A stretch of 64,000 bases of DNA from Candidatus Hydrothermarchaeum profundi (lineage in GTDB: Archaea > Hydrothermarchaeota > Hydrothermarchaeia > Hydrothermarchaeales > Hydrothermarchaeaceae): NCBI GenBank assembly GCA_002011125.2, contig MTMF02000008.1:32001-96000 (forward strand). Direction: 5' to 3'. The position numbers were made by a program, and so were the translations under genes. Each line of letters opens with the position of its first letter. The stretch's first letter is position 1. Under the pieces are notes generated by a model, which did not search any database, was not told where the DNA came from, and saw only the letters and a list, made by a program, of their open reading frames with translations. Below, piece by piece: positions 26-24,533 of this stretch.

Positions 26-108
26 CAAATTAGTGCATCATTTTTTGGAATTTTTTACAAAAAAAAGCTTTTATATTTTGATTGATCGAAAAAAAGCAGT
101 GAATATCC

Positions 109-642
109 ATGGATGATGAAATAGCGCATAAATCAGACAGGATGTCGGTCTCTAGAAGGAATTTCCTGAGAACTATTGGCTGGGGAAGTATAGTTGCCTT
201 CTTGAGCGGTTCCCTTTTGGCTGTTGTGAGATATTTATTTCCAAAGGTTTCTTATGAGCCTTCTCCCTCTTTTAAAGTGCAGACACCTGAAGATTATGAG
301 ATTGGGACAGTAGTTGTTGATAAACCTCACAAGGTTTTCATAGTACGTGAAGAAAATATAATATACGCTCTTATTGCGGTTTGTACCCATCTTGGATGTA
401 CGCCCCGATGGTTTCCGGATGAAGGAATTTTCAAATGCCCTTGCCATGGAAGCAGATTTTATAAGAATGGTATTAATTTCTATGGTCCTGCGCCTAGACC
501 ATTAGACAGGGCTTTCATTACGTTAGCTCCCGATGGCAGGATTTTGATAGATACGAGTAAAAAATTTAGTTCTGATGGCAGATCTTATGGTGAGGGATAT
601 TTAGGAGACTGGAAAGACCCTAGATCGTATTTAGAAGTGTGA
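109..642 (+). CDS. Rieske [2Fe-2S] subunit of a cytochrome bc-type complex
   Basis: Tat motif SRRNFL, TM helix, CTHLGC and CPCHGS boxes, GPAPRPL. Confidence 0.95.
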
Positions 643-643
643 T

Positions 644-1366
644 GTGATCTTTATGGGCTGGATTAAAAAAATAAAAGAAAGCAGGGTGTGGAAATCCTAT
701 TTTAGGGAAGAGTATGATGACACTTCTCGTGGAAGGACAAGAAGGATCCTCAGTAATGTTTGGTTCCACATACATCCTGCAAAAATTTCAAAAAAAGCTA
801 TAAATCCGTCATATACTCTTTGTCTTGGGGGAATTTCATTTCTTTTATTTATTATTCTTACAGTAAGCGGTATCCTTTTGATGTTTTATTACGTCCCAGA
901 TGTTAATAGAGCTTACGATGACATGCTTGATTTAGAGACAGTGGTGCCATTTGGTATTCCTTTAAGAAACATACACAGGTGGGCTGCCCATGGGATGATC
1001 ATAGCAGTTGTTGGCCATATGTGCCGAGTATTCTTTACTGGAGCTTATAAGCCTCCGAGAGAGTTTAATTGGGTTGTTGGAGTTTCTCTTTTATTACTTA
1101 CACTTCTATTGAGTTTTACTGGATATTTACTCCCCTGGGATCAATTGGCTTATTGGGCTATTACCGTTGGAACAAATATAGCCTCTTATGCACCTGTTGT
1201 GGGGCCAAAAATTAGATTTCTCCTTCTTGGGGGAAATACAGTAGGACAAAACGCTTTAATCCGTTTCTATGTGCTTCATGTAATCCTTCTACCTACGCTA
1301 ATGATGTTGCTTATGATTCTCCATTTTTGGAGAGTGCGAAAAGATGGCTTTTCTAGGGGACTATAA
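644..1366 (+). CDS. Cytochrome b N-terminal (b6-like) subunit
   Basis: CLGG motif, heme His in HRWAAH/GH and [21 protein letters not shown]; 240 aa split form. Confidence 0.95.
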
Positions 1367-1378
1367 GGAGGAAGATTA

Positions 1379-1831
1379 ATGGATAAAGAGGAAAAGACAG
1401 AGGCAAGGGTGCATACCTGGCCGCATTTAATGGCTAGGGAATTTATAGTAGCTCTGGCGTTAACTGTTTTCCTAATGGGCATATCGCTTGTCTTTAATGC
1501 TCCATTAGAAGAACATGCTAATCCTGAGATTACACCTAATCCTGCTAAAGCTCCTTGGTATTTCTTGGGCGTACAAGAACTGGTTTCATATGACGCATTT
1601 TTAGGTGGTGTGCTAATTCCGACACTGATTGTTTTAGCATTATTTGCTACGCCCTATATTGATAAAAATCCAAGGGGAGTTGGAATATGGTTTTCAAGAG
1701 AGAGAAAACTCGCTATACTCCTCTTTGCATTGTTGGTGATAATCTGGACGATATTAATAATAATTGGGGTTTATTTCAGAGGTCCGGAGTGGAGATGGTT
1801 CTGGCCGTGGGAATCTTGGGAGATCACATGA
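1379..1831 (+). CDS. Cytochrome b C-terminal subunit (subunit IV-like)
   Basis: ANPEITPNPAKAPWYFLG (PEWY-equivalent), three TM helices. Confidence 0.92.
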   Translation: MDKEEKTEARVHTWPHLMAREFIVALALTVFLMGISLVFNAPLEEHANPEITPNPAKAPWYFLGVQELVSYDAFLGGVLIPTLIVLALFATPYIDKNPRGVGIWFSRERKLAILLFALLVIIWTILIIIGVYFRGPEWRWFWPWESWEIT

Positions 1832-1840
1832 GGTGAAAAA

Positions 1841-2857
1841 ATGAGGATGCTTACATTATTTGTTGTTCTCAGTATGGGATTACTTGCCGTCTTTGCAATC
1901 GGTGTTTATAAAGAAGTATCTCCTGAGTGGAAAAAATATCAAATTGAATATTATGAGGAGCTTAAAAGTGACCTGGAGTCTAAATATAATAATGTTATAG
2001 ATCCTGGCGAAAAAGAAAGACTTAGAATGCAGTTAGAAGCTCTTAAAGAAGAAAAAATTGGGGTAAAACAGATTCTATTGCGTAATAGAGAAGTAGATCG
2101 TTGTCCAACATGTCATATAGATCTAAATACGCTTGCGAATAAGCATCCTACTTCAAAGCATTTTCCTTTTGATATTTATGGTTGCACTGTATGTCATGGT
2201 GGTGAGGGCAGAGCCCTAGATGAAGAGGAAGCCCATAAAGGAATATATGCGACAAAGGCTGATATGTGGTGGCGTTTGAGGGATTCAGAAACTATCTTTA
2301 ACTTTTGGAAGCAACTTGCAATTCTGACTCCTCCTCAAGAGATAGGTAGACAGAAAGAAAAGGAAATGCTTGACTTCCGTGAGTTCACAATTACTGGAGA
2401 AAAAGCTAAGTATTATGGTACGGAGAGCTGTTTGAAATGTCATAAGGATCTTGCTAGCAATCATATTGAAAGATGGGGGAAAACTAAGTTTAAAACGATG
2501 GAAATAGTGAAAAACTCTATTGATTTTATTGAAGGGGATCAAAGTTACAAGGAGCAATGCTATCGGTGTCATACGACTGGCTATGACGAAGATACAGGAA
2601 ATTATAAAGAGGAAGGAGTAAGGTGCGAAGCTTGCCATGGTCCTGGAGAAGTATATTACTATTTGATGAATATAGGCAAATATCGAGAAGCCTCTGAGAT
2701 CGCTATGATAGGGGTAGACTATAATGTGTGTTTTAATTGTCATACTGCTAGGCGACATGAAATGCGGTTTGGAGTCTTTGAAAAAGGTGACTATCAGGGC
2801 GACTGGTATTGGCATGGGTATGATACTATTAATGAAAATAGACAGGAGGAAGATTAA
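1841..2857 (+). CDS. Membrane-anchored hexaheme cytochrome c
   Basis: N-terminal TM; six CxxCH motifs (CPTCH, CTVCH, CLKCH, CYRCH, CEACH, CFNCH); C-terminal part resembles c554-like domains (CHTTG, CEACHGPG). Confidence 0.9.
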   Translation: MRMLTLFVVLSMGLLAVFAIGVYKEVSPEWKKYQIEYYEELKSDLESKYNNVIDPGEKERLRMQLEALKEEKIGVKQILLRNREVDRCPTCHIDLNTLANKHPTSKHFPFDIYGCTVCHGGEGRALDEEEAHKGIYATKADMWWRLRDSETIFNFWKQLAILTPPQEIGRQKEKEMLDFREFTITGEKAKYYGTESCLKCHKDLASNHIERWGKTKFKTMEIVKNSIDFIEGDQSYKEQCYRCHTTGYDEDTGNYKEEGVRCEACHGPGEVYYYLMNIGKYREASEIAMIGVDYNVCFNCHTARRHEMRFGVFEKGDYQGDWYWHGYDTINENRQEED

Positions 2858-4173
2858 TGCCTGAGGTATACAATTGGCAACTCGGGAGGAAAATGAAGTT
2901 TCCTTTTCAGGAAGCTTATCCAAAAAAACAATTTGCATTTGTTTTCAATCTTAACCGTTGTATAGCTTGTCAGACTTGTACAATGGCATGCAAATCTACT
3001 TGGACCTTCAGCAAGGGTCAAGAGTTTATGTGGTGGAATAATGTTGAAACAAAGCCTTATGGGGGTTACCCACAGCACTGGGATATAAAACTCCTTAAAA
3101 TGCTTGATGAGTCTCATAAGAAAATGGGAAGAAAGCCTATTTGGAAAAGTGAGATGGAGAAGGGTACTGCCCGGCCTTATGGAGTTTATGAAGGTTTGAC
3201 TATATTTGAAGCTCTCCCGGGGGAATCCACACCGATGGGTTTTACTCCTAGCGAAGTAGCATTGGGTTACTTACCTGGCGATAAAGAATGGCGGTTCCCA
3301 AATATTTTTGAAGATTCTCCTTATGGGCCACTAGGAAAAAGAAATGCATTCGTGCATTCGAAGGGTACCTCTTTGCCTGAGCATGAGCACTGGTTTTTCT
3401 ACCTTCCACGCTTATGTAATCATTGTACTTATCCTGCTTGTCTTGCTGCCTGCCCACGCAAAGCGATCTACAAGCGGGAGGAGGACGGTATTGTTCTGAT
3501 TGACCAAAAACGTTGTAGAGGATATAAAAAATGCGTTGAAGCATGTCCTTATAAAAAACCAATGTTCCGGTCTGCGACTAGGGTAAGTGAGAAATGTATC
3601 GCATGCTATCCTAGGATTGAAGGGAAAGATCCATTGAGTAATGGAAAACCAATGGAAACTAGGTGCATGACCGCATGCGTAGGTAAGATCCGAATTCAGG
3701 GGCTTGTTGATATAGATTCTAATGGGGTTTGGAAAAAAGATCCCCAAAATCCTATTTATTTCTTAGTGCATGTTGAGAAGGTTGCGCTACCCCTTTATCC
3801 TCAATTTGGTACTCTTCCCAATGGATATTATATCCCCCCCAGGTGGGTGCCTAGGAAGTATCTCTATCAAATGTTCGGTCCCGGTGTAGATGAAGCGATA
3901 GAAAGGTATACGGCTCCTTCTAGGGATCTTCTAGGTTTGTTGCAACTTTTCAGAACTACTCAAAAAATCATATTCAAATTTGAGGTACAAAAAACTGGGG
4001 AAAAAATCTATGAAACAACAATCAATGGCAAAAAATGGGCGATGTATAATGACAGGGTTATCGGTTATGATAAAGACGGAGAAATAGTCGTCGATACAAA
4101 GGTTCTAGAGCCTATTTTTGAAAGAAAACAGAAGGATCAGTTTGGTTATTATAAGCATTATAATTCAATTTAA
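2857..4173 (+). CDS. nxrB: Nitrite oxidoreductase/nitrate reductase beta (Fe-S) subunit, Nitrospira/anammox type
   Basis: MPEVYNWQLGR start, CIACQTCTMACK, WWNNVETKPYGG, CNHCTYPACLAACP, CRGYKKCVEACPYKK, CIACYPR...CMTACVG. Confidence 0.9.
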   Translation: MPEVYNWQLGRKMKFPFQEAYPKKQFAFVFNLNRCIACQTCTMACKSTWTFSKGQEFMWWNNVETKPYGGYPQHWDIKLLKMLDESHKKMGRKPIWKSEMEKGTARPYGVYEGLTIFEALPGESTPMGFTPSEVALGYLPGDKEWRFPNIFEDSPYGPLGKRNAFVHSKGTSLPEHEHWFFYLPRLCNHCTYPACLAACPRKAIYKREEDGIVLIDQKRCRGYKKCVEACPYKKPMFRSATRVSEKCIACYPRIEGKDPLSNGKPMETRCMTACVGKIRIQGLVDIDSNGVWKKDPQNPIYFLVHVEKVALPLYPQFGTLPNGYYIPPRWVPRKYLYQMFGPGVDEAIERYTAPSRDLLGLLQLFRTTQKIIFKFEVQKTGEKIYETTINGKKWAMYNDRVIGYDKDGEIVVDTKVLEPIFERKQKDQFGYYKHYNSI

Positions 4174-4182
4174 GGTGGTAAG

Positions 4183-4908
4183 ATGGATATAGTATCAATT
4201 AAGGCATTGGCTCGGAGTGTTATATATAAGCATCTTTCCTTATCTTTTCTTTATCCTGATTTAGAGTTTTATGAATTATTAAAAAATAGGATGTTTATAA
4301 AACGAATTCGGGATGCTTCTACGCTTTTAAAAAACGGAAAAGAATTAGAAAAGGGACTGAGGATGTTAGAAGAAAATGTTAAAAACCTAACATTTACATC
4401 GTTACAAGCTGAGCATCGTGTGATTTTCAGTAATATACCCTCAAATGAGTGTCCCCCTTACGAAGCCGAATACGGGACAGCTCACATTCACCAGAAAACA
4501 AAAGAGTTAGCTGATGTTTCAGGATTCTACAAGGCTTTCGGTTTAAACCCTTCAAATAAAATAGGGGAGCGATTTGATCATATTTCAGTAGAGTTTGAAT
4601 ATATGCATTTCTTAACATATGGAGAAGCTTATGCTCGAGATAAGAATGATGCAAATATGGTGGAAATTTATGTTTCGACACAGAGAAAATTTGTAGAAGA
4701 GCACATTGGAAAATGGGTGCCTGTGTTTTTGAGGTTGCTAAAAAAGAAAGCCAGAAAAGGATTTTACAATGCGCTCGTTGTGTTTGCATCTGATTTTGTA
4801 TCTTATGAAATTTCACTATTAGGTGTCAATCCAGAGGAAGTTGGTAAGCCTGAGATTTCGTCATTAGCTATGGAAGATGAATGTTTTTCGTGCGGGTCTT
4901 GTGGGTGA
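4183..4908 (+). CDS. TorD/DmsD-family molybdoenzyme chaperone
   Basis: PPYEAEY, DVSGFYKAFG, ERFDHISVEFEYM, FVEEHIGKW motifs. Confidence 0.88.
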   Translation: MDIVSIKALARSVIYKHLSLSFLYPDLEFYELLKNRMFIKRIRDASTLLKNGKELEKGLRMLEENVKNLTFTSLQAEHRVIFSNIPSNECPPYEAEYGTAHIHQKTKELADVSGFYKAFGLNPSNKIGERFDHISVEFEYMHFLTYGEAYARDKNDANMVEIYVSTQRKFVEEHIGKWVPVFLRLLKKKARKGFYNALVVFASDFVSYEISLLGVNPEEVGKPEISSLAMEDECFSCGSCG

Positions 4909-4913
4909 TAAAG

Positions 4914-5825
4914 ATGGAGATAAAATATGACTCTAGGCTTGTGGAGAATGTTGTAGTAGAAATAATTCGTCGAAAGGAAAAAGAGGGAGATTATGAACTT
5001 AGTGAATATTATCATCGAATCGCGGACCAAATTTACGATGCTCCAAAAAAAGATAGAGAAGATGAATTTAAAAAACTTCATCTAAGCATTTTCATGCGAT
5101 TAGGCTTAAATGAGGTTATAAACGAAGTAGTTGGAGAATTTCCGCAGTTGAGCAAAATAGATGAAATGGTGATATTGGAGGCTAATACCACAGAGGAAGC
5201 AGATTTACTAGTTAGTGAGAAAGGACAAAAAAGAATAGTAATAAAACTTCCTCCAGAAGGATTTCTCAGTTCACATCTTCTTTCTAGGTTTATGCGTCAT
5301 GAACTTATGCATATATCGGATATCCTTGATGAGGAGTTCGGTTATAAAAAAGAAAAATTTTCTAATTCTTTAGCAAATGAAATCGTGATTAAAGAGAAAT
5401 ATAAGTTACTCTGGGATATTTATGTAGACTCTCGTTTAATCTCATGTGGAAAAGAAACGATAGCTGATAAAAGTTTACGATATAAGGAATTCAATAAGAT
5501 TTTTCAAAAAATTCCAGAGGAGTACAGAGAAAGAGTCTTTAACTCTCTTTGGAATTCTAAGAAGTTAACTCATAATGAAATCTTAAGTTTATCGAAAGAA
5601 CCGCGGAAACTCCTTGAAAGGTCTGGTATAAGTTCCAAGGGAATTCTCTTAAGAGGTACACCATGTCCCCTCTGCGGATTTCCCACATATAATTGGTTTG
5701 AAAATCTAAGCGAATTTCGAGATGTTATAGCTGCTATAAAAGAAGACTTTCCGGAGTGGGACCAGGATGATGGAGCTTGTGATAGATGCGTGGAATTGTA
5801 TAGTTTGCAAGTTAGGGGGTTCTAA
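4914..5825 (+). CDS. Conserved hypothetical protein of the NXR cluster with HExxH motif and C-terminal CxxC...CxxC
   Basis: RHELMH, CPLCGF...CDRC; ATG at 4914 more likely than 4881. Confidence 0.75.
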   Translation: MEIKYDSRLVENVVVEIIRRKEKEGDYELSEYYHRIADQIYDAPKKDREDEFKKLHLSIFMRLGLNEVINEVVGEFPQLSKIDEMVILEANTTEEADLLVSEKGQKRIVIKLPPEGFLSSHLLSRFMRHELMHISDILDEEFGYKKEKFSNSLANEIVIKEKYKLLWDIYVDSRLISCGKETIADKSLRYKEFNKIFQKIPEEYRERVFNSLWNSKKLTHNEILSLSKEPRKLLERSGISSKGILLRGTPCPLCGFPTYNWFENLSEFRDVIAAIKEDFPEWDQDDGACDRCVELYSLQVRGF

Positions 5826-5848
5826 AGTTGAAAAAGGAGGCTAAAGAA

Positions 5849-8800
5849 ATGGCATTAACTAGAAGAAAATTTTTAAAGATGAGTGTAGCAACCGCTGCAG
5901 CAGCTATGGGATTAGGGAAAAAAGGGCTATCTTTAACCATTCTTGAACCTGTACGGGTTGATAATCCATTAGAGTCTTATCCAGATAGAAACTGGGAGAA
6001 AGTTTACCTTGATCAATATAAATATGATTCTACCTTCACCTACATATGTTCTCCAAATGACACTCATGCTTGCAGAGTTAAAGCCTTCGTTAGAAATGGA
6101 GTGATAGTGAGGGTAGAGCAAAACTATGACGTGCAGAAATATAAGGATCTATATGGAAATCAAGCAACAGTGCATTGGAATCCTAGAATGTGTCTCAAAG
6201 GATACACATTTCACCGCAAGGTATATGGGCCCTATCGCCTTAAAAAGCCCTTGATAAGGAAAGGGTGGAAGGAGTGGGCGGACGATGGTTTTCCTGAACT
6301 TACTCCAGAGAATAAGAAAAAATATAAATTTGATTCTAGGGGAACTGATGAACTTCTTCAGATAGACTGGGAAAGCGCATTTGAATATGCAGCTAGGGGG
6401 ATCATAGCCATAGCAAAGAGATACAGCGGGGAAGAAGGAGCTAAAAAATTATTAGCTCAAGGATATGCACCAGAAATGGTAAAGGAGATGGGGGGGGCTG
6501 GAACTAGGACTATAAAATGTCGTGGAGGAATGGGTCTTTTAGGCGCCATAGGAAAATACGGGATGTATAGGTTTTCCAACATGTTGGCATTACTGGATTC
6601 TCATATTCGGGGCGTCGGTCCAGATGAAGCCAAAGGCGGACGCAATTGGGATAATTATACATGGCATGGTGATCAGGCTCCTGGTCATCCGTGGGTACAT
6701 GGTTTGCAGACAAGTGAATGTGATTTCAATGACTTGAGAAATTCAAAGCTTCACATAGCTGTTGGTAAAAACCTAGTAGAAAATAAAATGCCTGAATCTC
6801 ATTTCTTCATAGAACTAATCGAACGAGGTGCCAAGGTCGTTGTTATATCACCGGACTATTGTGCTCCTAATACAAAAGCAGATTATTGGATACCAGTGAG
6901 ACCTAATTCAGACACGGCTTTATTCTTAGGGATTACTAAAATATTGATGGATAACAAGTGGTATGATGAAAAATTTGTTAAAAAATTCACTGACTTCCCG
7001 TTGCTTGTTAGAACTGATACACTAAAGAGGCTGAGAGCTGACGAGGTATTTCCAAATTATGTGAACCAAGATATTTCCAATGGCGTAATGATGAGGGTCA
7101 TGGGGTTAACAAAGGAACAAAGGGATAAAATAGGAGATAGAGTGATATGGGACAAAAATACTAATGGACTCAAAGCCATATCCCCTGAGGACGTGGGTAA
7201 AAAACTTGAAGAGAAAAACATCGATCCTGACTTAGAGTGGAAGGGCAAGGTAAAACTCGTTGATGGATCTGAAGTAGAAGTAATGACTCTCTGGGAGATG
7301 TACAAAGTTCATTTAAGAGACTATGATATCGATACAGTAGCTGAAATAACACAAGCCCCAAAAGATCTAATTATGAAATTAGCAAAGGACATTGCTACAA
7401 TTAAGCCTGTGGCTATACATGTTGGTGAAGGAATAAATCATTGGTTCCATGCAACAGAGGTCAATAGAGCTACATATCTCCCTCTTATGTTAACAGGTAA
7501 TATAGGAATCCATGGTGCAGGAAGTCATACTTGGGCAGGAAATTACAAGGCAGCTTTATGGCAGGGAAGTTCATGGTCTGGTCCTGGATTTCTTGGTTGG
7601 ATTAAAGAAGATCCGTTTAATCCTAACTTAGATCCTAATGCAAAGGCAAAGGACTTAAAAATAAGGGGCACCGTCAAGGGAGAGGCAATTGCTTATTGGA
7701 ACCATGGCGACACACCTCTGGTAGTAGAGACACCGAAATATGGTAGGAAAGTGTTTACAGGCAAAACAGCTATGCCTACGCCAACAAAGGTTATCTGGAC
7801 TACAAATGTCAATTTGTTAAACAACGCAAAACACGCCTATGACATGCTTTTCAATGTAAATAATAATGTTGAGCTTATAATGCAAAATGAGATTATAATG
7901 ACCTCTAGTGTAGAATACGGAGATATAACTTTTCCAGCTAACTCTTGGGTTGAATCACAGGCATATGAGGTACATGTAAGTTGTTCTAATCCTTTTCTAC
8001 AAATTTGGAAAGGAGGAATAAAGCCCCTCTATGATTCTAAGGACGATGTCAGAATATTAGCAGAGGTAGCTAGGGCAATTGGCCGAGAACTTAATGACAA
8101 GCGCTTCGAAGATTACTGGAAGTTTGCACTAGAGGGGAGGGAAGAGGTATATATAAATCGCTTACTTGACGGTTCTGCAACAACCCATGGATATACAGTG
8201 GAGGATATCATAGCAGGAAAATATGGAGAGCCTGGAGCAGCTTTAATGTTATTTAGGACTTATCCTAGAGTTGCATTTTATGAACAAATTCATGATAGCT
8301 GGCCATTTTACACGGATACAGGAAGGCTACATGCCTACTCAGATATCCCAGAAGCAATTGAATATGGAGAAAATTTTGTGGTACATAGAGAAGGACCAGA
8401 AGCAACCCCATATCAACCAAATGTAATAGTAAGCAATAACCCCTATATTCGTCCTGATGATTACGGCTTGCCTGACGATGCTAAACACTGGGATGAGCGC
8501 ACAGTGTTGAATAAAAAGATGCCATGGAGTAAAGTAAAAAACACAAAGAACTTCCTCTGGGAAAAAGGCTATAAATTTTATTGCATTACCCCCAAGACTC
8601 GACATCGTGTGCATTCTTCGTGGAGTGATGTTGACTGGCATATGATATGGGATTCTAACTTTGGGGATCCTTATAGGATGGATAAACGAACTCCTGGTGT
8701 TGGCGAACATCAGATCCATATTAATCCTATTGCTGCTAGGGACTTGGGATTAAATGATGGAGACTATGTTTATGTGGACGCTAATCCAGCGGACCGACCA

Positions 8801-9295
8801 TATCGTGGTGCTAAAAGCAATGACCCAAGATATAGGGTGGCGAGAGCCATGCTCAGAGTTAAGTATAACCCTGCGTTTCCTTATCACTTTACAATGATGA
8901 AGCATGGAGCTTTTATAGCTACCGAAAAAAGCGTGGATGCTCATGAAACTCGCAGCGATGGACGTGCCTTATCCAAGGGCACTGGATATCAGGCAAACTT
9001 CAGATATGGTAGCCATCAAAGTATTACTCGCGACTGGTCAATGCCGATGCATCAGACCGATTCTCTTTTCCATAAAAAGAAGGCCGTTATGGGTTTCATG
9101 TTTGGTAGCGAGTCTGATAATCACGCTATAAATACAGTTCCAAAAGAGACCTTAGTGAAAATATCTAAAGCAGAAGACGGAGGTCTAGGTGGAATAGGAA
9201 TCTGGGAACCAGCTACTACAGGTTTTTCTCCAGCTAATGAGAGTGAGTTTATGAAAAAATACTTGAGGGGGGATCTAATAAATGTTAAGAGGTGA
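5849..9295 (+). CDS. nxrA: Tat-exported nitrite oxidoreductase/nitrate reductase alpha (Mo-bisPGD) subunit, Nitrospira/anammox type
   Basis: TRRKFLK Tat signal, CSPNDTHAC...NPRMCLKG FS0 motif, NYTWHGDQAPGHP Mo-ligand region, TPKTRHRVHS; SD AGGAGG before ATG 5849. Confidence 0.92.
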   Translation: MALTRRKFLKMSVATAAAAMGLGKKGLSLTILEPVRVDNPLESYPDRNWEKVYLDQYKYDSTFTYICSPNDTHACRVKAFVRNGVIVRVEQNYDVQKYKDLYGNQATVHWNPRMCLKGYTFHRKVYGPYRLKKPLIRKGWKEWADDGFPELTPENKKKYKFDSRGTDELLQIDWESAFEYAARGIIAIAKRYSGEEGAKKLLAQGYAPEMVKEMGGAGTRTIKCRGGMGLLGAIGKYGMYRFSNMLALLDSHIRGVGPDEAKGGRNWDNYTWHGDQAPGHPWVHGLQTSECDFNDLRNSKLHIAVGKNLVENKMPESHFFIELIERGAKVVVISPDYCAPNTKADYWIPVRPNSDTALFLGITKILMDNKWYDEKFVKKFTDFPLLVRTDTLKRLRADEVFPNYVNQDISNGVMMRVMGLTKEQRDKIGDRVIWDKNTNGLKAISPEDVGKKLEEKNIDPDLEWKGKVKLVDGSEVEVMTLWEMYKVHLRDYDIDTVAEITQAPKDLIMKLAKDIATIKPVAIHVGEGINHWFHATEVNRATYLPLMLTGNIGIHGAGSHTWAGNYKAALWQGSSWSGPGFLGWIKEDPFNPNLDPNAKAKDLKIRGTVKGEAIAYWNHGDTPLVVETPKYGRKVFTGKTAMPTPTKVIWTTNVNLLNNAKHAYDMLFNVNNNVELIMQNEIIMTSSVEYGDITFPANSWVESQAYEVHVSCSNPFLQIWKGGIKPLYDSKDDVRILAEVARAIGRELNDKRFEDYWKFALEGREEVYINRLLDGSATTHGYTVEDIIAGKYGEPGAALMLFRTYPRVAFYEQIHDSWPFYTDTGRLHAYSDIPEAIEYGENFVVHREGPEATPYQPNVIVSNNPYIRPDDYGLPDDAKHWDERTVLNKKMPWSKVKNTKNFLWEKGYKFYCITPKTRHRVHSSWSDVDWHMIWDSNFGDPYRMDKRTPGVGEHQIHINPIAARDLGLNDGDYVYVDANPADRPYRGAKSNDPRYRVARAMLRVKYNPAFPYHFTMMKHGAFIATEKSVDAHETRSDGRALSKGTGYQANFRYGSHQSITRDWSMPMHQTDSLFHKKKAVMGFMFGSESDNHAINTVPKETLVKISKAEDGGLGGIGIWEPATTGFSPANESEFMKKYLRGDLINVKR

Positions 9296-9299
9296 ACTC

Positions 9300-10253
9300 A
9301 TGAATCGCAAGGGTATTTTAGCTTTTGGAGTCGTCTTTCTTATATCATTAACTTTAACATTTTTAAATATCAAAATTGCAAATTCTCAGGGAATTATACT
9401 TGAAGCTAAATATGTCGAGCATATCTCTATCGATAATATTAATGATCCAGTCTGGGATGAAGCAGTGCCTGTAATAGTGCCTCTTAGTGCTCAGTCGAGA
9501 ATAACAGCTCCGCGGGGAGGTGGAGCAATTAAATCCCTAACTGCTAGAGCACTTCATGATGGAGAGGCGATATATCTTAAACTCACTTGGAAAGATGATA
9601 CTGAAGATGTAAGCTTTTTGAGACAAGAAGATTTCAGAGATTCTGTCGCGGTTCAATTTCCAGTGAAATTAGATAATGGAAAGTTACCTTCTGTGTGTAT
9701 GGGACAACTTGGAGCAGCTGGCAACATATGGCATTGGAAGGCAGATTGGAACGAGGAATACTTAAATGGGTTCAAAGATATTGATAATGTGTATCCAAAT
9801 ATGATGGTGAATTTTTATCCAAGAGAAGAAGAGGAGATATTCTATCCTGCAAAATCTGTCGGAAATCTTTATTCTGTAGATAAACGGACAACCCCTGTTG
9901 AAAATCTAATTTCTACTGAATACGGTACAATAACTCCCTCAGCTGAACAGAATGTAATAGGAAAGGGAGAGTGGAAAAATGGAGAATGGACTGTTGTTAT
10001 GAGTCGATCCTTTACGACACCTTACGAAAGCGATGCACAATTTGGAGTGGGAAAGAGAACAGCTATCTCCTTTGCAGCATGGGACGGCTCTGCTGGGGAA
10101 AGAGATGGCTTGAAGTCTACGTCTACATGGATAGACCTTGAGATATCTGAACCCCTACCACAAAAATCTCCTTTGGATACGATAGTCGTATTTACACTAT
10201 TTGCAGCGATTGTGATTTTTGTTGTATTTATAATAATTAGAACTGTTACATGA
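9300..10253 (+). CDS. nxrC: Heme-b gamma subunit (EbdC/NxrC-like DOMON domain) with C-terminal membrane anchor
   Basis: FRDSVAVQFP, CMGQ (Met ligand), IWHWKA, FAAWDGSAGERDGLK (Lys ligand); N-terminal signal/TM and C-terminal TM. Confidence 0.82.
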   Translation: MNRKGILAFGVVFLISLTLTFLNIKIANSQGIILEAKYVEHISIDNINDPVWDEAVPVIVPLSAQSRITAPRGGGAIKSLTARALHDGEAIYLKLTWKDDTEDVSFLRQEDFRDSVAVQFPVKLDNGKLPSVCMGQLGAAGNIWHWKADWNEEYLNGFKDIDNVYPNMMVNFYPREEEEIFYPAKSVGNLYSVDKRTTPVENLISTEYGTITPSAEQNVIGKGEWKNGEWTVVMSRSFTTPYESDAQFGVGKRTAISFAAWDGSAGERDGLKSTSTWIDLEISEPLPQKSPLDTIVVFTLFAAIVIFVVFIIIRTVT

Positions 10254-10262
10254 GGAAGGAAC

Positions 10263-10505
10263 ATGGTTGATGAAAAAAGTGTAGCTGAAATTTTACATAA
10301 GGAGTTCTCAGGGATAGTGGATGAAGATAAGATAAATAAAATTGCTAAGCAAATTGTTGAGTTAGAAGAAGAATGGGAAGAACTTAAGATAGTTGATAAA
10401 GAAATGGGCTGGCGGTTTTCAGTTCAATGCCCAGATATATGTTATCTTGGAGAAAAAGCTAAGGAGGGTGATGTGTTTAAAATTTTAAGAAAAAAGAGAA
10501 AGTAA
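10263..10505 (+). CDS. Small hypothetical protein with CxxxC
   Basis: SD GAGGAAGGA, CPDIC motif, in operon. Confidence 0.6.
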   Translation: MVDEKSVAEILHKEFSGIVDEDKINKIAKQIVELEEEWEELKIVDKEMGWRFSVQCPDICYLGEKAKEGDVFKILRKKRK

Positions 10506-10547: not shown

Positions 10548-11315
10548 GTGATAAAGATATATTTAAGCCGTTCATGTGTTACATTATTTATTGTTGGCAT
10601 TGTTATTAGTGCCATATTTGGGTATTCTGTAAGTTATAGTGAGGTCTCTTCTATAAAACAAGAGATGGAAAAAGTGAAAGCTGAAAATAGAGAACTCGAA
10701 GCAAGGATACAGGCCGGATTCAGAGTTTTTTCGGAGTTAGAGAGAATGTCGTATACCCTCAGCCAGATAAGAGTGGCTCTTTTATTGGGTGACTATGAAG
10801 TAGCTACTTTTAGGGCTAATCAATTTAAGGAATCTGCGACAGGACTTTCTAAATATTTAAAACCTGAATATACTACTACCCTGGAGGAGCTAGTAGATGG
10901 GTTAATTGTTGCTATAGAGGAGGGAAATGAAGAAGCAATTGAGGAGAGATCTAGAGCTCTCTTTCTCCTAGTGCAAATATTAGAGTCAGAATTTGGTGTT
11001 AGAGAAGACGTAGAGTTAATAGGGGAGATAGATATCAAGAATAATATGAGAAGGATGAATCATGAACTTGCTAGAATACTCTCTGCTTTGGATGAGGATA
11101 ACTATAACATGACAAAAGAGGCGTTTAATGATTTCAAAAAAATATATATGGCTTTATCTGAAACAACTCCTGAAGCATGGGATCCTTATTTTAGAACTGA
11201 TATTGTATTTGAAATTGAAAAAAGCATTATAGAAAAAGACAAAAATAATTCATTAGAAGCTCTTAATAAACTTTCAGAAAAGAGTTGTGATAAGTGTCAT
11301 ACAAAATATCGTTGA
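10548..11315 (+). CDS. Membrane-anchored helical monoheme cytochrome c (class II/c'-like)
   Basis: N-terminal TM, predominantly helical, single C-terminal CDKCHTKYR. Confidence 0.75.
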   Translation: MIKIYLSRSCVTLFIVGIVISAIFGYSVSYSEVSSIKQEMEKVKAENRELEARIQAGFRVFSELERMSYTLSQIRVALLLGDYEVATFRANQFKESATGLSKYLKPEYTTTLEELVDGLIVAIEEGNEEAIEERSRALFLLVQILESEFGVREDVELIGEIDIKNNMRRMNHELARILSALDEDNYNMTKEAFNDFKKIYMALSETTPEAWDPYFRTDIVFEIEKSIIEKDKNNSLEALNKLSEKSCDKCHTKYR

Positions 11316-11344: not shown

Positions 11345-11908
11345 GTGATGGAAATTAAGGCGACAGAGCAATTAAAAGAAGAACATAAGGTTATTAAACT
11401 GATGTTGCAGGTTTTAATAAAGATTTGTGAAAAACTAGAGTCGGGTGAAAAGGTTCCTATAGAACACCTTAATAAAATAGTGGATTTTATTAGAACATTT
11501 GCGGATAAATGTCATCATGGAAAGGAAGAAGACCTCCTTTTTCCGGCAATGGAAAAATCCGGCGTGCCTAGAGAGGAGGGTCCGATTGGCGTAATGTTGG
11601 CGGAGCATGATAATGGGCGGAAATATGTTAAGAATATGGATGAGGCTATTTCTAGATATGGGAGAGGGGATAATACTGCGATACCTGACATAATAGCGAA
11701 TGCAGAGGGATACATCAATCTTCTAGCTCAGCACATTGAGAAGGAAGACAATATACTTTACAAATTAGCAGATATGCATCTCCCCATGGAGAGGCAGGAA
11801 GAATTACTCAAAGAATTCGAAAAAATTGAGCGGGAAAGAATTGGTATTGGGAAGCATGAGGAATTTCACGAATTAATACATCAATTAAGGGATATATACT
11901 TACAATAA
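11345..11908 (+). CDS. Hemerythrin/HHE-domain protein
   Basis: EEH, CHHGKEEDLLFP, GPIGVMLAEH, HIEKEDNILY. Confidence 0.9.
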   Translation: MMEIKATEQLKEEHKVIKLMLQVLIKICEKLESGEKVPIEHLNKIVDFIRTFADKCHHGKEEDLLFPAMEKSGVPREEGPIGVMLAEHDNGRKYVKNMDEAISRYGRGDNTAIPDIIANAEGYINLLAQHIEKEDNILYKLADMHLPMERQEELLKEFEKIERERIGIGKHEEFHELIHQLRDIYLQ

Positions 11909-11956
11909 CTTTTAAGATTATATTTTAAGTAGTTAATAATATGTATTATCACCGAC

Positions 11957-12298
11957 ATGTCGGTTAACACACACAAAGGAATCGAGTTGGGCATGCTTCA
12001 AATGCAGATTTTATGGCTTTTATGGCGGGAGCCCACTCATGGTTATGAGTTAATGAAAAGACTTGATAAAATAAAGAATAGCAAAGTAGAGCAGGGGACT
12101 CTTTATCCAGCGCTTCAAAAATTGGAAGAGAATAATCTTATAAGAGTTAAAAGGGTAGGGGAGCGGGGTAAAAAGATATACGAACTCACTAGCAGGGGGG
12201 AGGAGATTATGATAAAAACATGTGAAGAATTCTCAAAAACTTTTTCGGGGATTTTTAGTGATTTTGTATGTAAAACATGTAAAACAGAGGTGAGATAA
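11957..12298 (+). CDS. PadR-family transcriptional regulator with Cys-rich C-terminus
   Basis: HGYELMK, GTLYPALQKLE, KKIYELTSRG; C-terminal TCEEF...CKTC. Confidence 0.88.
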   Translation: MSVNTHKGIELGMLQMQILWLLWREPTHGYELMKRLDKIKNSKVEQGTLYPALQKLEENNLIRVKRVGERGKKIYELTSRGEEIMIKTCEEFSKTFSGIFSDFVCKTCKTEVR

Positions 12299-13503
12299 TG
12301 AGGAGAGTGTATATGGATCATGCGGCGACTACACCTGTAGACCCCCGAGTTATGGAAGCAATGAAACCTTTTTTCTCAGAGAAATATGGTAACCCGTCTT
12401 CACTTTATAGTTTTGCTCAGGAAGCAAAAAAAGCGATGGAGGAGGCGAGAGAAAAGATAGCTGACCTAATTAACTCATCTTCCTCTGAAGTTATATTCAC
12501 ATCCGGTGGCACAGAGTCGGACAACTTGGCTATAAAAGGGGTTGCTTTTGCTAACAAGAAAAAGGGTAAACATATAATAACTTCATCTATAGAGCATCAC
12601 GCAGTGCTCCATCCATGTGAGTGGCTTGAAAAAATGGGTTTTGAGGTAACATATTTACCAGTTGACAATAAAGGCTTTGTTTCTGTAGATAAGTTGGAAG
12701 AGGAGATTCGCAACGATACGATCTTAATTTCAATTATGCATGCTAATAATGAAATCGGAACTATTGAACCTATAGAAGAGATAGGGAAAATAGCGAAGGA
12801 AAGAGGCATATACTTCCATACCGATGCAGTTCAAACTGTAGGAAAAATACCTGTAGACGTAGAAAAAATGAATGTAGATTTATTGACTATCTCAGGTCAT
12901 AAAATGTATGGACCAAAAGGGGTTGGGGCTCTTTATGTTCGCAAAGGCACAAAAATAACTCCTTTAATACACGGAGGGGGCCATGAACGGAATCTTAGAT
13001 CAGGTACTGAGAATGTTTCTGGTATAGTAGGATTCGGAAAGGCGGCAGAACTCGCTGCTCGAGAAATGGATAAAGAAGCAAAGAGGCTGGTAAAGCTGAG
13101 GGATAGGTTAATTGAGGGCGCCTTAAAGATCGAGAACTCTTGGTTAAATGGACCAAGGAAAAGAAGGTTGCCGAATAATGTTAACATAGGCTTTAAATTC
13201 ATAGAAGGTGAATCTTTAATTTTAGAACTCGACTTTAGCGGCATTTACGCCAATACTGGAAGTGCTTGTTCCTCAAAGTCTCTTAAACCAAGCCATGTTC
13301 TAACTGCTATTGGGTTAAGACCCGAGGAAACCCACGGGTCACTACGATTTACTCTTGGTAAACAAAATTCAGATGAAGATGTGGACTATGTATTAGAAGT
13401 ACTGCCTAATGTAGTTGAGAGATTAAGAAGAATATCCCCGTTTAAAAAAGATTTTGGGGAATATGAGGAGGCTTTAGCAAAGGAACAGTCTCATAAACAC
13501 TAG
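12298..13503 (+). CDS. iscS: Cysteine desulfurase IscS/NifS
   Basis: YMDHAATTP, FTSGGTESDN, SGHKMYGPKG, TGSACSS. Confidence 0.95.
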   Translation: MRRVYMDHAATTPVDPRVMEAMKPFFSEKYGNPSSLYSFAQEAKKAMEEAREKIADLINSSSSEVIFTSGGTESDNLAIKGVAFANKKKGKHIITSSIEHHAVLHPCEWLEKMGFEVTYLPVDNKGFVSVDKLEEEIRNDTILISIMHANNEIGTIEPIEEIGKIAKERGIYFHTDAVQTVGKIPVDVEKMNVDLLTISGHKMYGPKGVGALYVRKGTKITPLIHGGGHERNLRSGTENVSGIVGFGKAAELAAREMDKEAKRLVKLRDRLIEGALKIENSWLNGPRKRRLPNNVNIGFKFIEGESLILELDFSGIYANTGSACSSKSLKPSHVLTAIGLRPEETHGSLRFTLGKQNSDEDVDYVLEVLPNVVERLRRISPFKKDFGEYEEALAKEQSHKH

Positions 13504-13513
13504 GAGGAAACAT

Positions 13514-13909
13514 ATGTATAGCGACAAGTTAATAGACCATTTTCGAAATCCTAGGAACATGGGTAGAATGGAAAACCCTGATGGTATTGGAAAGGTAGGA
13601 AACCCCGTATGTGGGGATGTAATGTATCTATATATTAAGATAAAGGACAATAAGATAGACGATATCAAATTCGAGACCTTCGGATGTGCAGCGGCTATAG
13701 GTACAAGTAGTGTAATAACAGAGATGGCTAAAGGGAAAACCTTGGACGAGGCTTTAAAGATAACTAAAAAAGATGTAGTTGATGCGGTTGGAGGATTACC
13801 ACCTATCAAGATGCATTGTTCGGTATTAGCTGCTGATGCTTTACGTGCGGCAATTGAAGATTATCGTAAGAAAAAAGGTAGTGGGAATGATAAGCCAAAA
13901 GATAGTTAA
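13514..13909 (+). CDS. iscU: Fe-S scaffold IscU/NifU
   Basis: GNPVCGD, FGCAAA, LPPIKMHCS. Confidence 0.95.
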   Translation: MYSDKLIDHFRNPRNMGRMENPDGIGKVGNPVCGDVMYLYIKIKDNKIDDIKFETFGCAAAIGTSSVITEMAKGKTLDEALKITKKDVVDAVGGLPPIKMHCSVLAADALRAAIEDYRKKKGSGNDKPKDS

Positions 13910-14261
13910 AATTCTAAAAAATCCAAAGCATATGGGAAAAATAGAAAGCCCAGATGGGGTTGGGAAAGTGACTCTTGGTGAACCTCATTGTGAGGATGAG
14001 GTATGGTTTTATATTAAAGTAAAGGATGATAAGATAGTGGACGCAAAATTCGAAGCATTTGCATGTGCGCCAGCTTTAGTTACAAGTAATATCGCGGCAG
14101 AGCTTGCTTTAGGCAAAACAATAGGCGAAGCTAAAAAACTTAGTAAGATGGATGTGTCGTCCTACTTAGGAGGGATTCCTCAGATAGAGAGAAAATGTGC
14201 CGACTTAGGAACTGATGCGCTTAAAGCTGCTATTAACGATTATCTTAAAAGAGGACAGTAA
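13887..14261 (+). CDS. Second, divergent IscU-like scaffold
   Basis: HCEDE, FACAPA, IPQIERKC; ATG 13887 likely. Confidence 0.8.
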   Translation: MISQKIVKILKNPKHMGKIESPDGVGKVTLGEPHCEDEVWFYIKVKDDKIVDAKFEAFACAPALVTSNIAAELALGKTIGEAKKLSKMDVSSYLGGIPQIERKCADLGTDALKAAINDYLKRGQ

Positions 14262-24439: not shown

Positions 24440-24533
24440 GCCGGGGTAACTCAGCCTGGTTAGAGTGCCACGCTCATAGGGATTTCAGGCCTGGGAAACG
24501 TGGAAGCCGCGGGTTCGAAGCCCGTCCCCGGCA
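24440..24533 (+). tRNA. tRNA with CAT anticodon (elongator Met) and 19-nt intron at 37/38 (24479-24497)
   Basis: Acceptor GCCGGGG/CCCCGGC-A, D-stem ACTC/GAGT, anticodon stem CCACG/CGTGG, T-arm GCGGG-TTCGAAG-CCCGT; BHB with helix CUCA/UGGG and bulges UAG and AAA; CCA not encoded. Confidence 0.93.

Follow-up and report, generated by a model that had tools for sequence, protein, structure and literature searches.

A periplasmic-type nitrite oxidoreductase gene cluster joined to Rieske/cytochrome b genes in a Hydrothermarchaeota chromosome, probably serving outward-facing nitrate reduction

Results

The window analysed here is a stretch of 64,000 nucleotides from Candidatus Hydrothermarchaeum profundi, in which position 1 is position 32,001 of contig MTMF02000008.1 (contig C8 of genome G000). 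Between 109 and 10253 it carries nine genes, all on the plus strand and separated by gaps of -28 to +12 nt. An earlier note, made from the sequence alone, had placed nxrB, a chaperone gene, X, nxrA and nxrC in this order at 2857-10253, and five plus-strand open reading frames were found there, with families that match for nxrB, the chaperone (NarJ/TorD type), nxrA and nxrC. As a unit this was too small, since the cluster starts with Rieske, cytochrome b and hexahaem cytochrome genes at 109-2857.

The first gene (109-642) encodes a Rieske 2Fe-2S subunit with an N-terminal anchor containing RR (PF00355, 37.2 bits; CxH...CxxH at residue 92), which reached 78 bits against b6f-type PetC models, under their cut-offs. 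It is followed by the two halves of a split cytochrome b, a cytochrome b6-like N-terminal half (644-1366; PF00033, 150 bits) and a subunit IV-like C-terminal half (1379-1831; PF00032, 26.3 bits). The former scores 292.3 bits with the ExtP model NF040969 (cut-off 290), and the latter 69.6 bits with the ExtQ model NF040970, under its cut-off of 150. The best named relatives of the b6-like protein are bacterial, at 61-65% identity; for cytochrome b genes from within the Hydrothermarchaeota the highest identity is 52%. The fourth gene (1841-2857) encodes a membrane-anchored hexahaem cytochrome c (six CxxCH motifs; PF13435; PF22113), and its stop codon shares 1 nt with the nxrB start. Among its homologues with an organism name, 15 of 21 belong to Kuenenia, Brocadia, Scalindua or Brocadiales (39-48% identity). 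Judged by these matches, the genes at 109-2857 fit a b6f-like complex made of a Rieske protein, a split cytochrome b and a c-type partner. The same three components occur in the anammox Rieske/haem b complex kuste4569-4574 (PMC12053348, in excerpt), and both have an HAO-like gene in the vicinity; the window module differs by being co-operonic with NXR, and the NAD(P)-oxidoreductase subunit was not seen in the window. No second case of NXR fused with Rieske, cytochrome b and hexahaem genes was found in the loci or genomes examined.

Downstream lie the NXR genes proper. NxrB, the iron-sulfur subunit (2857-4173), begins with the residues MPEVYNWQLGR quoted earlier and matches 7b04_A at 601 bits, the type II DMSO-reductase iron-sulfur subunit model TIGR03478 at 263 bits, and PF13247. 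A NarJ/TorD-type assembly chaperone (4183-4908; PF02613, 73.6 bits; TIGR03482, 87.5 bits) and gene X separate it from NxrA, the Mo-bisMGD catalytic subunit with a Tat signal (5828-9295). NxrC (9282-10253) is an EbdC-like haem b subunit (PF09459 EB_dh, 122 bits; TIGR03477; 7b04_C, 112 bits) with hydrophobic termini, read from the sequence as an N-terminal signal or anchor and a C-terminal transmembrane helix. Its Met140 and Lys278 align with the haem ligands Met155 and Lys305 of Kuenenia NXR-C (numbering from PMC8387239, in excerpt), in agreement with the Met/Lys haem b subunit proposed before. At these match scores chance is of no concern.

NxrA residues are numbered from the TTG start at 5828; the database copy P0001 (1148 aa) begins at Met8, and the ATG at this point (nucleotide 5849) is the probable true start. 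The protein matches PF00384, TIGR03479 (331 bits) and the Tat signal model TIGR01409 (21.2 bits, cut-off 16.7), and it carries RRKF at 12-15, CSPNDTHAC at 74-82, MCLKG at 121-125 and NYTWHGDQAPGHP at 276-288; the genome encodes two TatC proteins. The FS0 ligands C74/D78/C82/C122, the substrate residue N77 and the Mo ligand D282 are all six present; the Cys/Asp/Cys/Cys motif and the Tat signal named in the earlier note are thereby both borne out. Their equivalents in KsNXR-A are C67, D71, C75, C115, N70 and D275 (PMC8387239, in excerpt), and across 160 ingroup NxrA rows they are retained in 157 (C74), 156 (N77), 148 (D78), 156 (C82), 156 (C122) and 159 (D282).

Against solved structures, NxrA matched 7b04_B end to end (query residues 8-1153) with 1903.7 bits, compared with 195 for PcrA, 132 for EbdA and 92 for NarG. 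Protein-search matches of the former level correspond to 67-69% identity; NxrA identity between Kuenenia and nitrite oxidisers is about 60%, and to NAR about 20% (PMC8387239, in excerpt). In trees built without named Nitrospira or Kuenenia sequences, and with 11 more distant members of the type II DMSO-reductases as outgroups, the NXR clade including the window NxrA was supported at 100% (SH-like/SH-aLRT), and NxrA did not branch with NarG, PcrA or EbdA. Phylogeny and scores thus assign NxrA to the periplasmic NXR clade (Nitrospira/Nitrospina/anammox type). A cytoplasmic NarGHI was considered and rejected: TIGR01580 (narG; cut-off 1084) scored 129.5 bits and narH (cut-off 524) 193 bits, NxrA carries a Tat signal, and none of the cluster genes was noted as NarI-like.

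Gene X (4881-5825, plus strand) encodes a conserved NXR-associated protein with HExxH and two C-terminal CxxC motifs that has no Pfam, NCBIfam or PDB match. A homologue adjoins NXR in 15 of 50 genome loci and in all three other Hydrothermarchaeota NXR loci. In the Atlas, the closest clusters are families without a name that come from Verrucomicrobiota, Methylomirabilota, Planctomycetota and Nitrospinota. Immediately upstream of the nine genes, a polytopic membrane protein of 308 aa (G000:C8:31087-32013) has its 3' end at 1-13 of the window, on the plus strand. It belongs to no Pfam or NCBIfam family; a homologue with 35% identity lies directly 3' of gene X in the relative G002, and tblastn matches adjoin NXR in 5 of 59 loci (L058, L005, L047, L041 and L008).

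On the downstream side, also on the plus strand, an 80-aa open reading frame (10263-10505) starts 9 nt after nxrC and has no family and no relative among the collected NXR loci. Next comes a helical protein of 255 aa (10548-11315), anchored at its N-terminus and bearing a single CxxCH near its C-terminus, a candidate monohaem redox partner by its sequence; its similarity to the four-helix cytochrome b562 is non-significant (E about 1), and a paralogue (48%) lies at C9:722783-723520. No homologue of NXR-T, the tubule-forming subunit of the anammox sub-type only, was detected: neither gene X nor the 255-aa protein gave a PDB match beyond chance. The following plus-strand genes (11345-14261) encode a hemerythrin-domain protein (PF01814, 87.5 bits), a PadR-like regulator, IscS and two IscU-like proteins, the IscS, IscU and PadR names coming from reading of the translations rather than from profile matches; they possibly provide Fe-S and NO-stress support.

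The host genome is 97.65% complete with 1.46% contamination. Contig C8 is 135 kb long and carries a partial archaeal SSU (16S) rRNA gene at its end (509 and 169 bits), with the operon 32-42 kb in. Among the archaeal markers named in the earlier note, Mer lies at 30275-31279 (NF002619, 437.6 bits, cut-off 276) and, for the tRNA intron, there is a tRNA at 24440-24533 missed by ARAGORN, which must carry an insertion because its 94-nt Rfam match covers all 71 model positions. The GC content of the operon (0.392) equals that of the genome (mean 0.391 +/- 0.022), and the tetranucleotide distance of the operon lies at the 76th percentile among 273 equal-size stretches of the genome. In run X1 a second assembler produced a Logan contig of 49,361 bp that spans C8:26001-46000 and both operon junctions with 0 differences; it is not fully independent, since the source sample may be the one sequenced in X1. 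Run X2, from a different study, gave 23 pieces at at least 99% identity, some of which bridge the upstream open reading frame to the Rieske and hexahaem genes, the hexahaem gene to NxrB and the chaperone, and NxrC to its downstream side. The locus was found in no RNA run. Just upstream of the operon, a histidine kinase and response regulator are 63% identical to the pair flanking the NXR cluster of another Hydrothermarchaeota genome, G007, so that the pair is syntenic between the two loci; further genes in the flanks of the G007 cluster share 50-65% identity with genes of G000. Contig, composition and both assemblies argue against a chimera over the first ~14 kb, which had been raised as a concern: the operon sits in a native archaeal chromosome and is not a misassembled bacterial piece.

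Searches of the whole genome for terminal oxidases and for Nir, Nor and Nrf enzymes yielded a cNOR, whose NorB (3o0r_B, 391.6 bits) is the sole full-length haem-copper oxidase gene and is accompanied by a dihaem cytochrome c; in a 416-aa open reading frame adjoining norB, three stretches resemble COX1 weakly (25-39 bits). Haem-copper oxidase and cytochrome bd searches recognised no O2 reductase, the latter finding none. NrfA and NirS had no match in the genome and NirK only one of 19 bits, and the hydrazine synthase alpha domain was not found. CODH and a [NiFe] hydrogenase are encoded, and contig C8 also carries a NapA-like gene, an HAO/HDH-like multihaem gene and MoeA.

Periplasmic-type NXR was found in 4 of 38 Hydrothermarchaeota genomes (G000, G002, G007 and G022). 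Together with NXR clusters of Nitrospinota and Chloroflexota MAGs, the loci of the last three are among the closest known systems; they share the enzyme clade (67-77% NxrA identity), the chaperone and gene X with the window, and G007 also the flanking two-component system. They differ in order, which runs bd-like membrane protein, two monohaem cytochromes c, NxrC-A-B-chaperone-X, and have no Rieske/cytochrome b or hexahaem gene. The bd-like protein has no homologue in G000. Their NxrA sequences form a clade separate from that of the window, and monophyly of the four Hydrothermarchaeota NxrA was rejected (lnL difference 397.6, p-AU 1.55e-5). The window cluster thus combines another NxrA lineage with another electron-transfer module. 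It is of bacterial ancestry, with a composition fully adapted to the host, and the earlier proposal that an archaeon acquired the enzyme holds for ancestry and host, but not as a single acquisition.

Discussion

Taken together, the best explanation of 109-10253, with the upstream membrane gene and the small open reading frames to 11315, is a single archaeal respiratory operon that joins a periplasmic-type NXR/NAR to a Rieske/cytochrome b module and a hexahaem cytochrome for outward-facing nitrate reduction, a reading that we consider probable as a whole. Nitrate respiration at the outer face, already proposed as the likeliest role, appears most likely from the gene content, also with cNOR, CODH and hydrogenase present and no O2 reductase recognised in the genome. 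We infer the catalytic direction, the route of the electrons, their coupling to quinone and what the HAO-like protein does; observed are the gene identities, cofactor ligands, Tat signal with TatC, tight operon, archaeal host and gene inventory. In the proposed scheme, low-potential donors (CO via CODH, H2 via the [NiFe] hydrogenase) would reduce the membrane quinone pool, and the Rieske/cytochrome b module would oxidise quinol and conserve energy via a Q-cycle. Outside the membrane, electrons would pass from the hexahaem cytochrome to the NxrC haem b, the NxrB Fe-S chain, FS0 and the Mo site of Tat-exported NxrA, where nitrate would be reduced to nitrite on the outer face. Nitrite and NO may then be taken by the candidate HAO-like multihaem protein and cNOR; the fate of nitrite rests on the HAO-like candidate because the canonical nitrite reductases NrfA, NirS and NirK were not found.

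This path has an archaeal precedent in the route from quinol via Rieske/cytochrome b and multihaem c to an outward-facing Nar set out in PMC4683180 (in excerpt). The same paper reports that haloarchaeal nar clusters are antimycin-sensitive and, like the window operon, include genes for Rieske/cytochrome b. Compared by published description, the pNar of haloarchaea and 'Ca. Methanoperedens' (PMC4683180, in excerpt; PMC7327174) has in common with the window a Tat-exported outer-face catalytic subunit, an EbdC/Orf7-like haem b subunit, NarJ and a proposed menaquinol supply via Rieske/cytochrome b and multihaem c. The catalytic subunit of the window differs by belonging to the Nitrospira/anammox NXR clade, whereas the Methanoperedens enzymes are placed in the NarG/Nitrobacter-type clade, as 'cytoplasmic NxrA' or NarG (PMC7327174); neither NarM nor NapH was noted among the genes of the window cluster. 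The Kuenenia stuttgartiensis NXR-ABC (PDB 7b04; PMC8387239, in excerpt) shares the three-subunit architecture, Tat signal, FS0 with three Cys and one Asp, Mo-site Asn and Asp, Met/Lys haem b and a chaperone in the cluster. In the window the host is archaeal and has no anammoxosome, NxrC has a C-terminal membrane helix, and the order B-chaperone-X-A-C is fused to Rieske/cytochrome b genes and comes with no hydrazine synthase. The earlier suggestion that archaeal precedent was lacking proved too strong, given a Nitrososphaerales MAG with a bacterial-like nxrABC-torD cluster (PMC9562985, in excerpt) and nar genes already listed for Hydrothermarchaeota (PMC6775978 and PMC6759336, in excerpts).

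The sequence does not fix the direction of catalysis, because the enzyme class and its traits are common to true nitrite oxidisers and to Kuenenia NXR, which is bidirectional and has the Asp-ligated FS0 and the Met/Lys high-potential haem b (PMC8387239, in excerpt), and the Rieske/cytochrome b complex could equally be run backwards, lifting nitrite electrons to quinone. A physiological, anammox-like nitrite oxidoreductase would oxidise nitrite outside and send the electrons backwards to quinone, or via c-type cytochromes to acceptors such as NO at cNOR. The 1904-bit match to an enzyme that oxidises nitrite in Kuenenia, with every FS0, Mo and haem ligand kept, is consistent with such a role, as are the named relatives of the hexahaem cytochrome, mostly from anammox bacteria, in which a hexahaem protein is part of a Rieske/haem b complex (PMC12053348, in excerpt), the cNOR with its dihaem cytochrome c, and the nearby HAO/HDH-like gene. 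Yet nitrite is not needed as a donor, because CODH and hydrogenase supply ample low-potential electrons, and with neither an O2 reductase recognised nor a hydrazine synthase alpha domain found in the genome we regard this role as unlikely. Also counting against it, cNOR is not known to conserve energy.

In the three relatives a putative oxidase of bd-like type and two cytochromes c adjoin the same enzyme. This arrangement is that of the Nitrospira and Nitrospina nitrite oxidisers. It is conceivable, though decidedly unlikely in our judgement, that the first nitrite-oxidising archaea are to be found among the Hydrothermarchaeota, or at least that some of them run an anammox-style NXR oxidatively; if so, in G000 a hard-wired Rieske/cytochrome b-hexahaem-NXR supercomplex could send nitrite electrons backwards to the quinone pool or on to NO at cNOR.

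Reduction of another oxyanion (chlorate, perchlorate or selenate) or oxidation of an unrelated substrate would be in keeping with the catalytic diversity of the type II DMSO-reductase family, with PcrA and EbdA as the next-best structures, and with a cytochrome b that scores 2 bits above the cut-off of ExtP, a model for selenite/tellurite operons. These structures score far below NXR-A, the neighbourhood is nitrogen-oxide themed (NapA-like, HAO-like), and the nitrate/nitrite-coordinating Asn is retained as N77, where ethylbenzene dehydrogenase has Ile (PMC8387239, in excerpt), all of which makes this explanation very improbable. Bacterial DNA misjoined or misbinned into the archaeal genome would explain why nine of nine operon genes have bacterial nearest named relatives, and the X1 contig may come from the source sample itself, but this is largely refuted, and its probability close to negligible, given the archaeal rRNA on the same 135-kb contig, a composition indistinguishable from that of the genome, one 49-kb contig across both junctions, identical junction-bridging pieces in a second study and the shared two-component system.

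NXR makes the nitrate found in nature and NAR consumes it; the periplasmic clade of NXR commonly serves as a bacterial marker for nitrite oxidation or anammox. Here this clade is rooted in the chromosome of a deep-branching, anaerobic, CO- and H2-using archaeal lineage, with a bc-type complex encoded in the same operon, and nxrA matches in subsurface metagenomes are therefore not readable as nitrification. For biochemical work the locus provides a quinol-to-nitrate (or nitrite-to-quinone) chain that is compact and genetically defined, and it highlights gene X and the 308-aa membrane protein as two conserved, uncharacterised NXR accessory genes. The Hydrothermarchaeota loci also document repeated exchange of a whole respiratory module between domains, probably including its replacement in place.

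Identity and location of the enzyme

The earlier note described an NXR of the Nitrospira/anammox type, encoded as NxrB-chaperone-X-NxrA-NxrC in an archaeal chromosome, and structure scores, cofactor ligands and the evidence on the host confirm this observation. NxrA aligned end to end with NXR-A of Kuenenia stuttgartiensis (7b04_B) at 1903.7 bits, as compared to 195 for PcrA, 132 for EbdA and 92 for NarG among the lower-ranked structures. NxrB and NxrC matched the same Kuenenia structure with 601 and 112 bits, respectively. Placement of NxrA in the NXR clade rather than with NarG, PcrA or EbdA, also proposed earlier, was further supported by a clade support of 100%. The residues for Mo, substrate, haem and FS0, the iron-sulfur cluster of NxrA, were looked for as named in the description of the Kuenenia structure (PMC8387239). 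NxrA has the FS0 ligands C74, D78, C82 and C122, the substrate residue Asn77 and the Mo ligand Asp282, and NxrC has the haem ligands Met140 and Lys278. Within an alignment of 160 clade members the key NxrA residues were conserved in 148 to 159 rows, and the FS0 Asp position was a Cys in 8 of 11 outgroups.

The Tat signal of NxrA exceeds the curated cut-off, two TatC genes are present in the genome and NxrC is hydrophobic at both its N- and C-terminus; NxrABC is therefore predicted to be tethered to the membrane on its outer side. A cytoplasmic NarGHI was rejected, given the Tat signal, a narG score of 129.5 bits against a cut-off of 1084 and a narH score far below its cut-off.

Layout of the operon

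The NXR genes belong to a unit of nine tightly packed genes on the + strand (window 109-10253), spaced at −28 to +12 nt. Genes for a Rieske protein (109-642), a cytochrome b6-like protein (644-1366), a subunit IV-like protein (1379-1831) and a membrane-anchored hexahaem cytochrome c with six CxxCH motifs (1841-2857) are followed by those for NxrB (2857-4173), a NarJ/TorD chaperone (4183-4908), the conserved ORF that we call gene X (4881-5825), NxrA (5828-9295, with the ATG at 5849 as the likely start, as in its 1148-aa database copy P0001) and NxrC (9282-10253). The interval 2857-10253 that the earlier note gave for the NXR is correct, but it covers only the second half of this unit. A 308-aa membrane ORF that ends at window position 13 also recurs beside NXR clusters elsewhere, and therefore it probably belongs to the unit.

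Scanning for sigma-70 promoters and terminators gave counts equal to those of shuffled sequence (48 vs 44.7 and 6 vs 9.5), the model being uninformative for an archaeon. At window 60-108 (6060-6108 of the stored locus L062) an A-rich stretch is followed by TTTATAT, some 30-38 nt ahead of the ATG of the Rieske gene. This resembles an archaeal BRE/TATA promoter, a likeness possibly due to chance at 39% GC. Of the sequencing runs recorded as containing the locus, none is an RNA run.

Pfam and NCBIfam matches were obtained for every operon gene except gene X, which encodes 314 aa with an HExxH and two CxxC motifs and matched nothing in Pfam, NCBIfam or PDB. It was found near NXR at 15 of 50 genome loci and at all three other Hydrothermarchaeota NXR loci, and the Atlas clusters closest to it are families without a name, of Verrucomicrobiota, NC10, Planctomycetota and Nitrospinota. 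Gene X is, as judged from sequence and gene context, a conserved companion or accessory factor of periplasmic-type NXR, and its product may be a metallopeptidase-like maturation protein.

Two small ORFs lie 3' of nxrC. One of them encodes a 255-aa helical protein (window 10548-11315) that has an anchor at its N-terminus and its only CxxCH at the C-terminus. Its outline is like that of anammox NXR-T (a helical bundle with haem near the C-terminus), and no significant sequence match was found. A paralogue with 48% identity (G000:C9:722783-723520) adjoins a small cupredoxin-like ORF that scored 19 bits with the NirK model.

Host and contiguity

The genome (G000) comprises 2.19 Mb in 19 contigs and is 97.65% complete and 1.46% contaminated; the window corresponds to positions 32001-96000 of its contig C8. 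In line with the earlier note's use of Mer as an archaeal marker, the window match to Mer lies above the model cut-off. ARAGORN found no tRNA within the window and missed a 94-nt Rfam match at 24440-24533. This match spans the whole 71-position model and is therefore a tRNA with an insertion, probably an intron. ARAGORN also reported a tRNA-Pyl (CTA anticodon) at G000:C9:1321583-1321652, in an archaeon without MCR.

That the operon is a bacterial fragment joined to the contig by misassembly, as the earlier note had considered, is very unlikely. The 135-kb contig (C8) has a partial archaeal SSU rRNA at its end. Operon GC is 0.392, as compared to a genome mean of 0.391 ± 0.022, and the tetranucleotide distance is ordinary (76th percentile among 273 windows). 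The Logan assembly of sequencing run X1, possibly from the source sample of the genome, holds a single 49,361-bp contig over C8:26001-46000 with zero differences. Run X2, from another study, gave 23 pieces with at least 99% identity, and these bridge the upstream ORF and Rieske-hexahaem genes, the hexahaem and NxrB-chaperone genes, and NxrC and the downstream ORFs. This was further supported by synteny: a histidine kinase and response regulator upstream (C8:27.5-31 kb) have 63% identity to the pair flanking the NXR cluster of another Hydrothermarchaeota genome (G007), and other genes in that flank have 50-65% identity to genes of G000 in syntenic blocks.

Distribution and origin

Of 38 Hydrothermarchaeota genomes, four (G000 included) were found to encode an NXR-type NxrA, and so were 2 of the 21 that are at least 90% complete. 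All four sequences fall in one clade with 100% support in both a FastTree tree of 104 rows and an IQ-TREE (LG+G4) tree of 44 rows, neither of which had a named Nitrospira or Kuenenia row. This NXR clade also includes sequences from Chloroflexota, Nitrospinota, Planctomycetota, Verrucomicrobiota, NC10 and others. Within it, the window NxrA groups with its closest relatives P0002-P0004 (80% identity), and the NxrA of the other three Hydrothermarchaeota form a separate clade. Constraining the four archaeal sequences, a group chosen post hoc from the first tree, to be together cost 397.6 lnL units (p-AU 1.55e-5). Against PDB, P0002 and a further protein, P0086, scored 1894 and 1856 bits, and neither is a close anammox sequence.

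The gene clusters differ as well. In G002, G007 and G022, NxrC-A-B-chaperone-X is preceded by a homologue of cytochrome bd-like subunit I (68 bits to PF01654) and by two monohaem cytochromes c (modules at 3469-6416 of L060, G007:C51; 40-2972 of L058, G002:C8; and 2-1572 of L061, G022:C106), whereas G000 uses the Rieske/cytochrome b/hexahaem genes instead. No homologue of the bd-like protein or of the two cytochromes c was found anywhere in G000. The bd-like arrangement is common to six bacterial loci, and is seen in Nitrospinota, Chloroflexota and betaproteobacterial MAG loci. The fusion of NXR with a Rieske/cytochrome b-hexahaem module was seen in none of the 50 genome loci or three other Hydrothermarchaeota NXR loci; Rieske/cytochrome b genes lie near NXR in only one of the 50 (L010, about 6 kb distant).

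The window cytochrome b has 61-65% identity to named bacterial proteins. Matches were also present in 20 other Hydrothermarchaeota genomes, and neither these nor the second copy in G000 exceed 52%. Among hexahaem homologues, 15 of the 21 rows with an organism name are Kuenenia, Brocadia, Scalindua or Brocadiales; no homologue above 48% identity was found in the protein collection, and a scan of metagenome contigs gave one weak match (30%). In Kuenenia, a hexahaem protein belongs to a Rieske/haem b complex (PMC12053348). Taken together, we read the whole nine-gene unit as of putative bacterial ancestry, and its full adaptation in composition to the genome as a sign of long residence. The unit may go back to a second acquisition, or to replacement in situ at a conserved locus under two-component control, with bacteria as the putative donors.

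The earlier note knew of no demonstrated archaeal nitrite oxidiser. There is a precedent for this clade in archaea, as a bacterial-like nxrABC-torD cluster has been published for an archaeal Nitrososphaerales MAG (PMC9562985). Methanoperedens enzymes have been put in the 'cytoplasmic NxrA'/NarG group (PMC7327174). Papers on Hydrothermarchaeota report nar and nap genes and describe Nar as cytoplasmic (PMC6775978, PMC6759336); these descriptions do not identify the NXR type, and supplements may already do so. In the reference list of PMC9635834 the Kuenenia NXR paper directly follows the Hydrothermarchaeota papers. What appears to be new is the secure assignment of the NXR type in Hydrothermarchaeota, the operon-level fusion with the Rieske/cytochrome b-hexahaem module and the presence of two distinct NXR cluster types in one archaeal order.

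Genomic context and proposed function

Between 2 and 12 kb upstream of the operon, C8 encodes NapA-like and HAO/HDH-like proteins, two sensor kinase/regulator pairs and MoeA. The NapA-like molybdoenzyme (796 aa; 657 bits with the NapA model against a cut-off of 904, and 538 bits with Fdh-alpha) and the adjoining HAO/HDH-like multihaem cytochrome (490 aa; PF13447, 100.7 bits) are encoded on the − strand (G000:C8:20240-24099; L064 240-4099), and this pair, 8-12 kb from the operon, is a candidate second nitrate/nitrite module. The kinase/regulator pairs (G000:C8:24299-30963; L064 4299-10963; − strand) have a Tll0287-like sensor domain in one kinase and dCache/sCache in the other, and each regulator has DUF7347 at its end. 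Synteny (63% identity) with the pair beside the G007 NXR makes the one nearest the NXR a likely regulator of the operon. Downstream of the operon lies a gene for a hemerythrin-domain protein, and further genes, as read from their translations, would encode PadR, IscS and two IscU. By analogy to RIC/NorA-type proteins, these genes could fit a role in Fe-S repair during NO stress.

The sole full-length haem-copper oxidase gene in G000 encodes a cNOR NorB (391.6 bits to 3o0r_B), at a locus (C9:122412-126104; L065) with a dihaem cytochrome c upstream. Downstream of norB, a 416-aa membrane ORF contains three repeated stretches with weak likeness to COX1 (25-39 bits), and a sulfite-reductase-like ORF adjoins the locus. 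No cytochrome bd was found in G000, and genes of CODH/ACS type and for [NiFe] hydrogenase are present. On these grounds the inventory points to an anaerobe. The search for terminal oxidases, Nir, Nor and Nrf proposed by the earlier note thus yielded cNOR and no bd; NrfA and NirS were not found in G000, and NirK reached only 19 bits with its model. The NosZ propeller search gave no match in any control genome, and the HZS_alpha search was negative in G000, which is weak evidence as the sole control match was Bacteroides. MCR-based methane metabolism was rejected as electron source, as G000 has no MCR alpha.

The most economical model, which we consider fairly probable, is an outward-facing nitrate respiration in five steps. 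Quinone would be reduced by CO or H2, the Rieske/cytochrome b would take electrons from quinol and pass them via hexahaem c to NxrC-B-A, nitrate would be reduced outside the cell, and the nitrite and NO would go to the candidate HAO-like enzyme and cNOR. The Methanoperedens model and haloarchaeal nar clusters are a published parallel (PMC4683180). The earlier note had favoured the same use, and the anaerobe-type inventory with CODH, hydrogenase and cNOR agrees with it.

Operation in the oxidative direction, i.e. nitrite oxidation by archaea, is conceivable because this enzyme class is reversible in vitro, and we regard it as improbable. It is somewhat more attractive for G002, G007 and G022, with their bd-like module, than for G000. 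The arrangement of bd-like protein, cytochromes c and NXR in these three relatives resembles the layout of nitrite oxidisers, and these genomes therefore qualify better as candidate archaeal nitrite oxidisers. Nitrite oxidation by archaea is a reading of low probability and high value.
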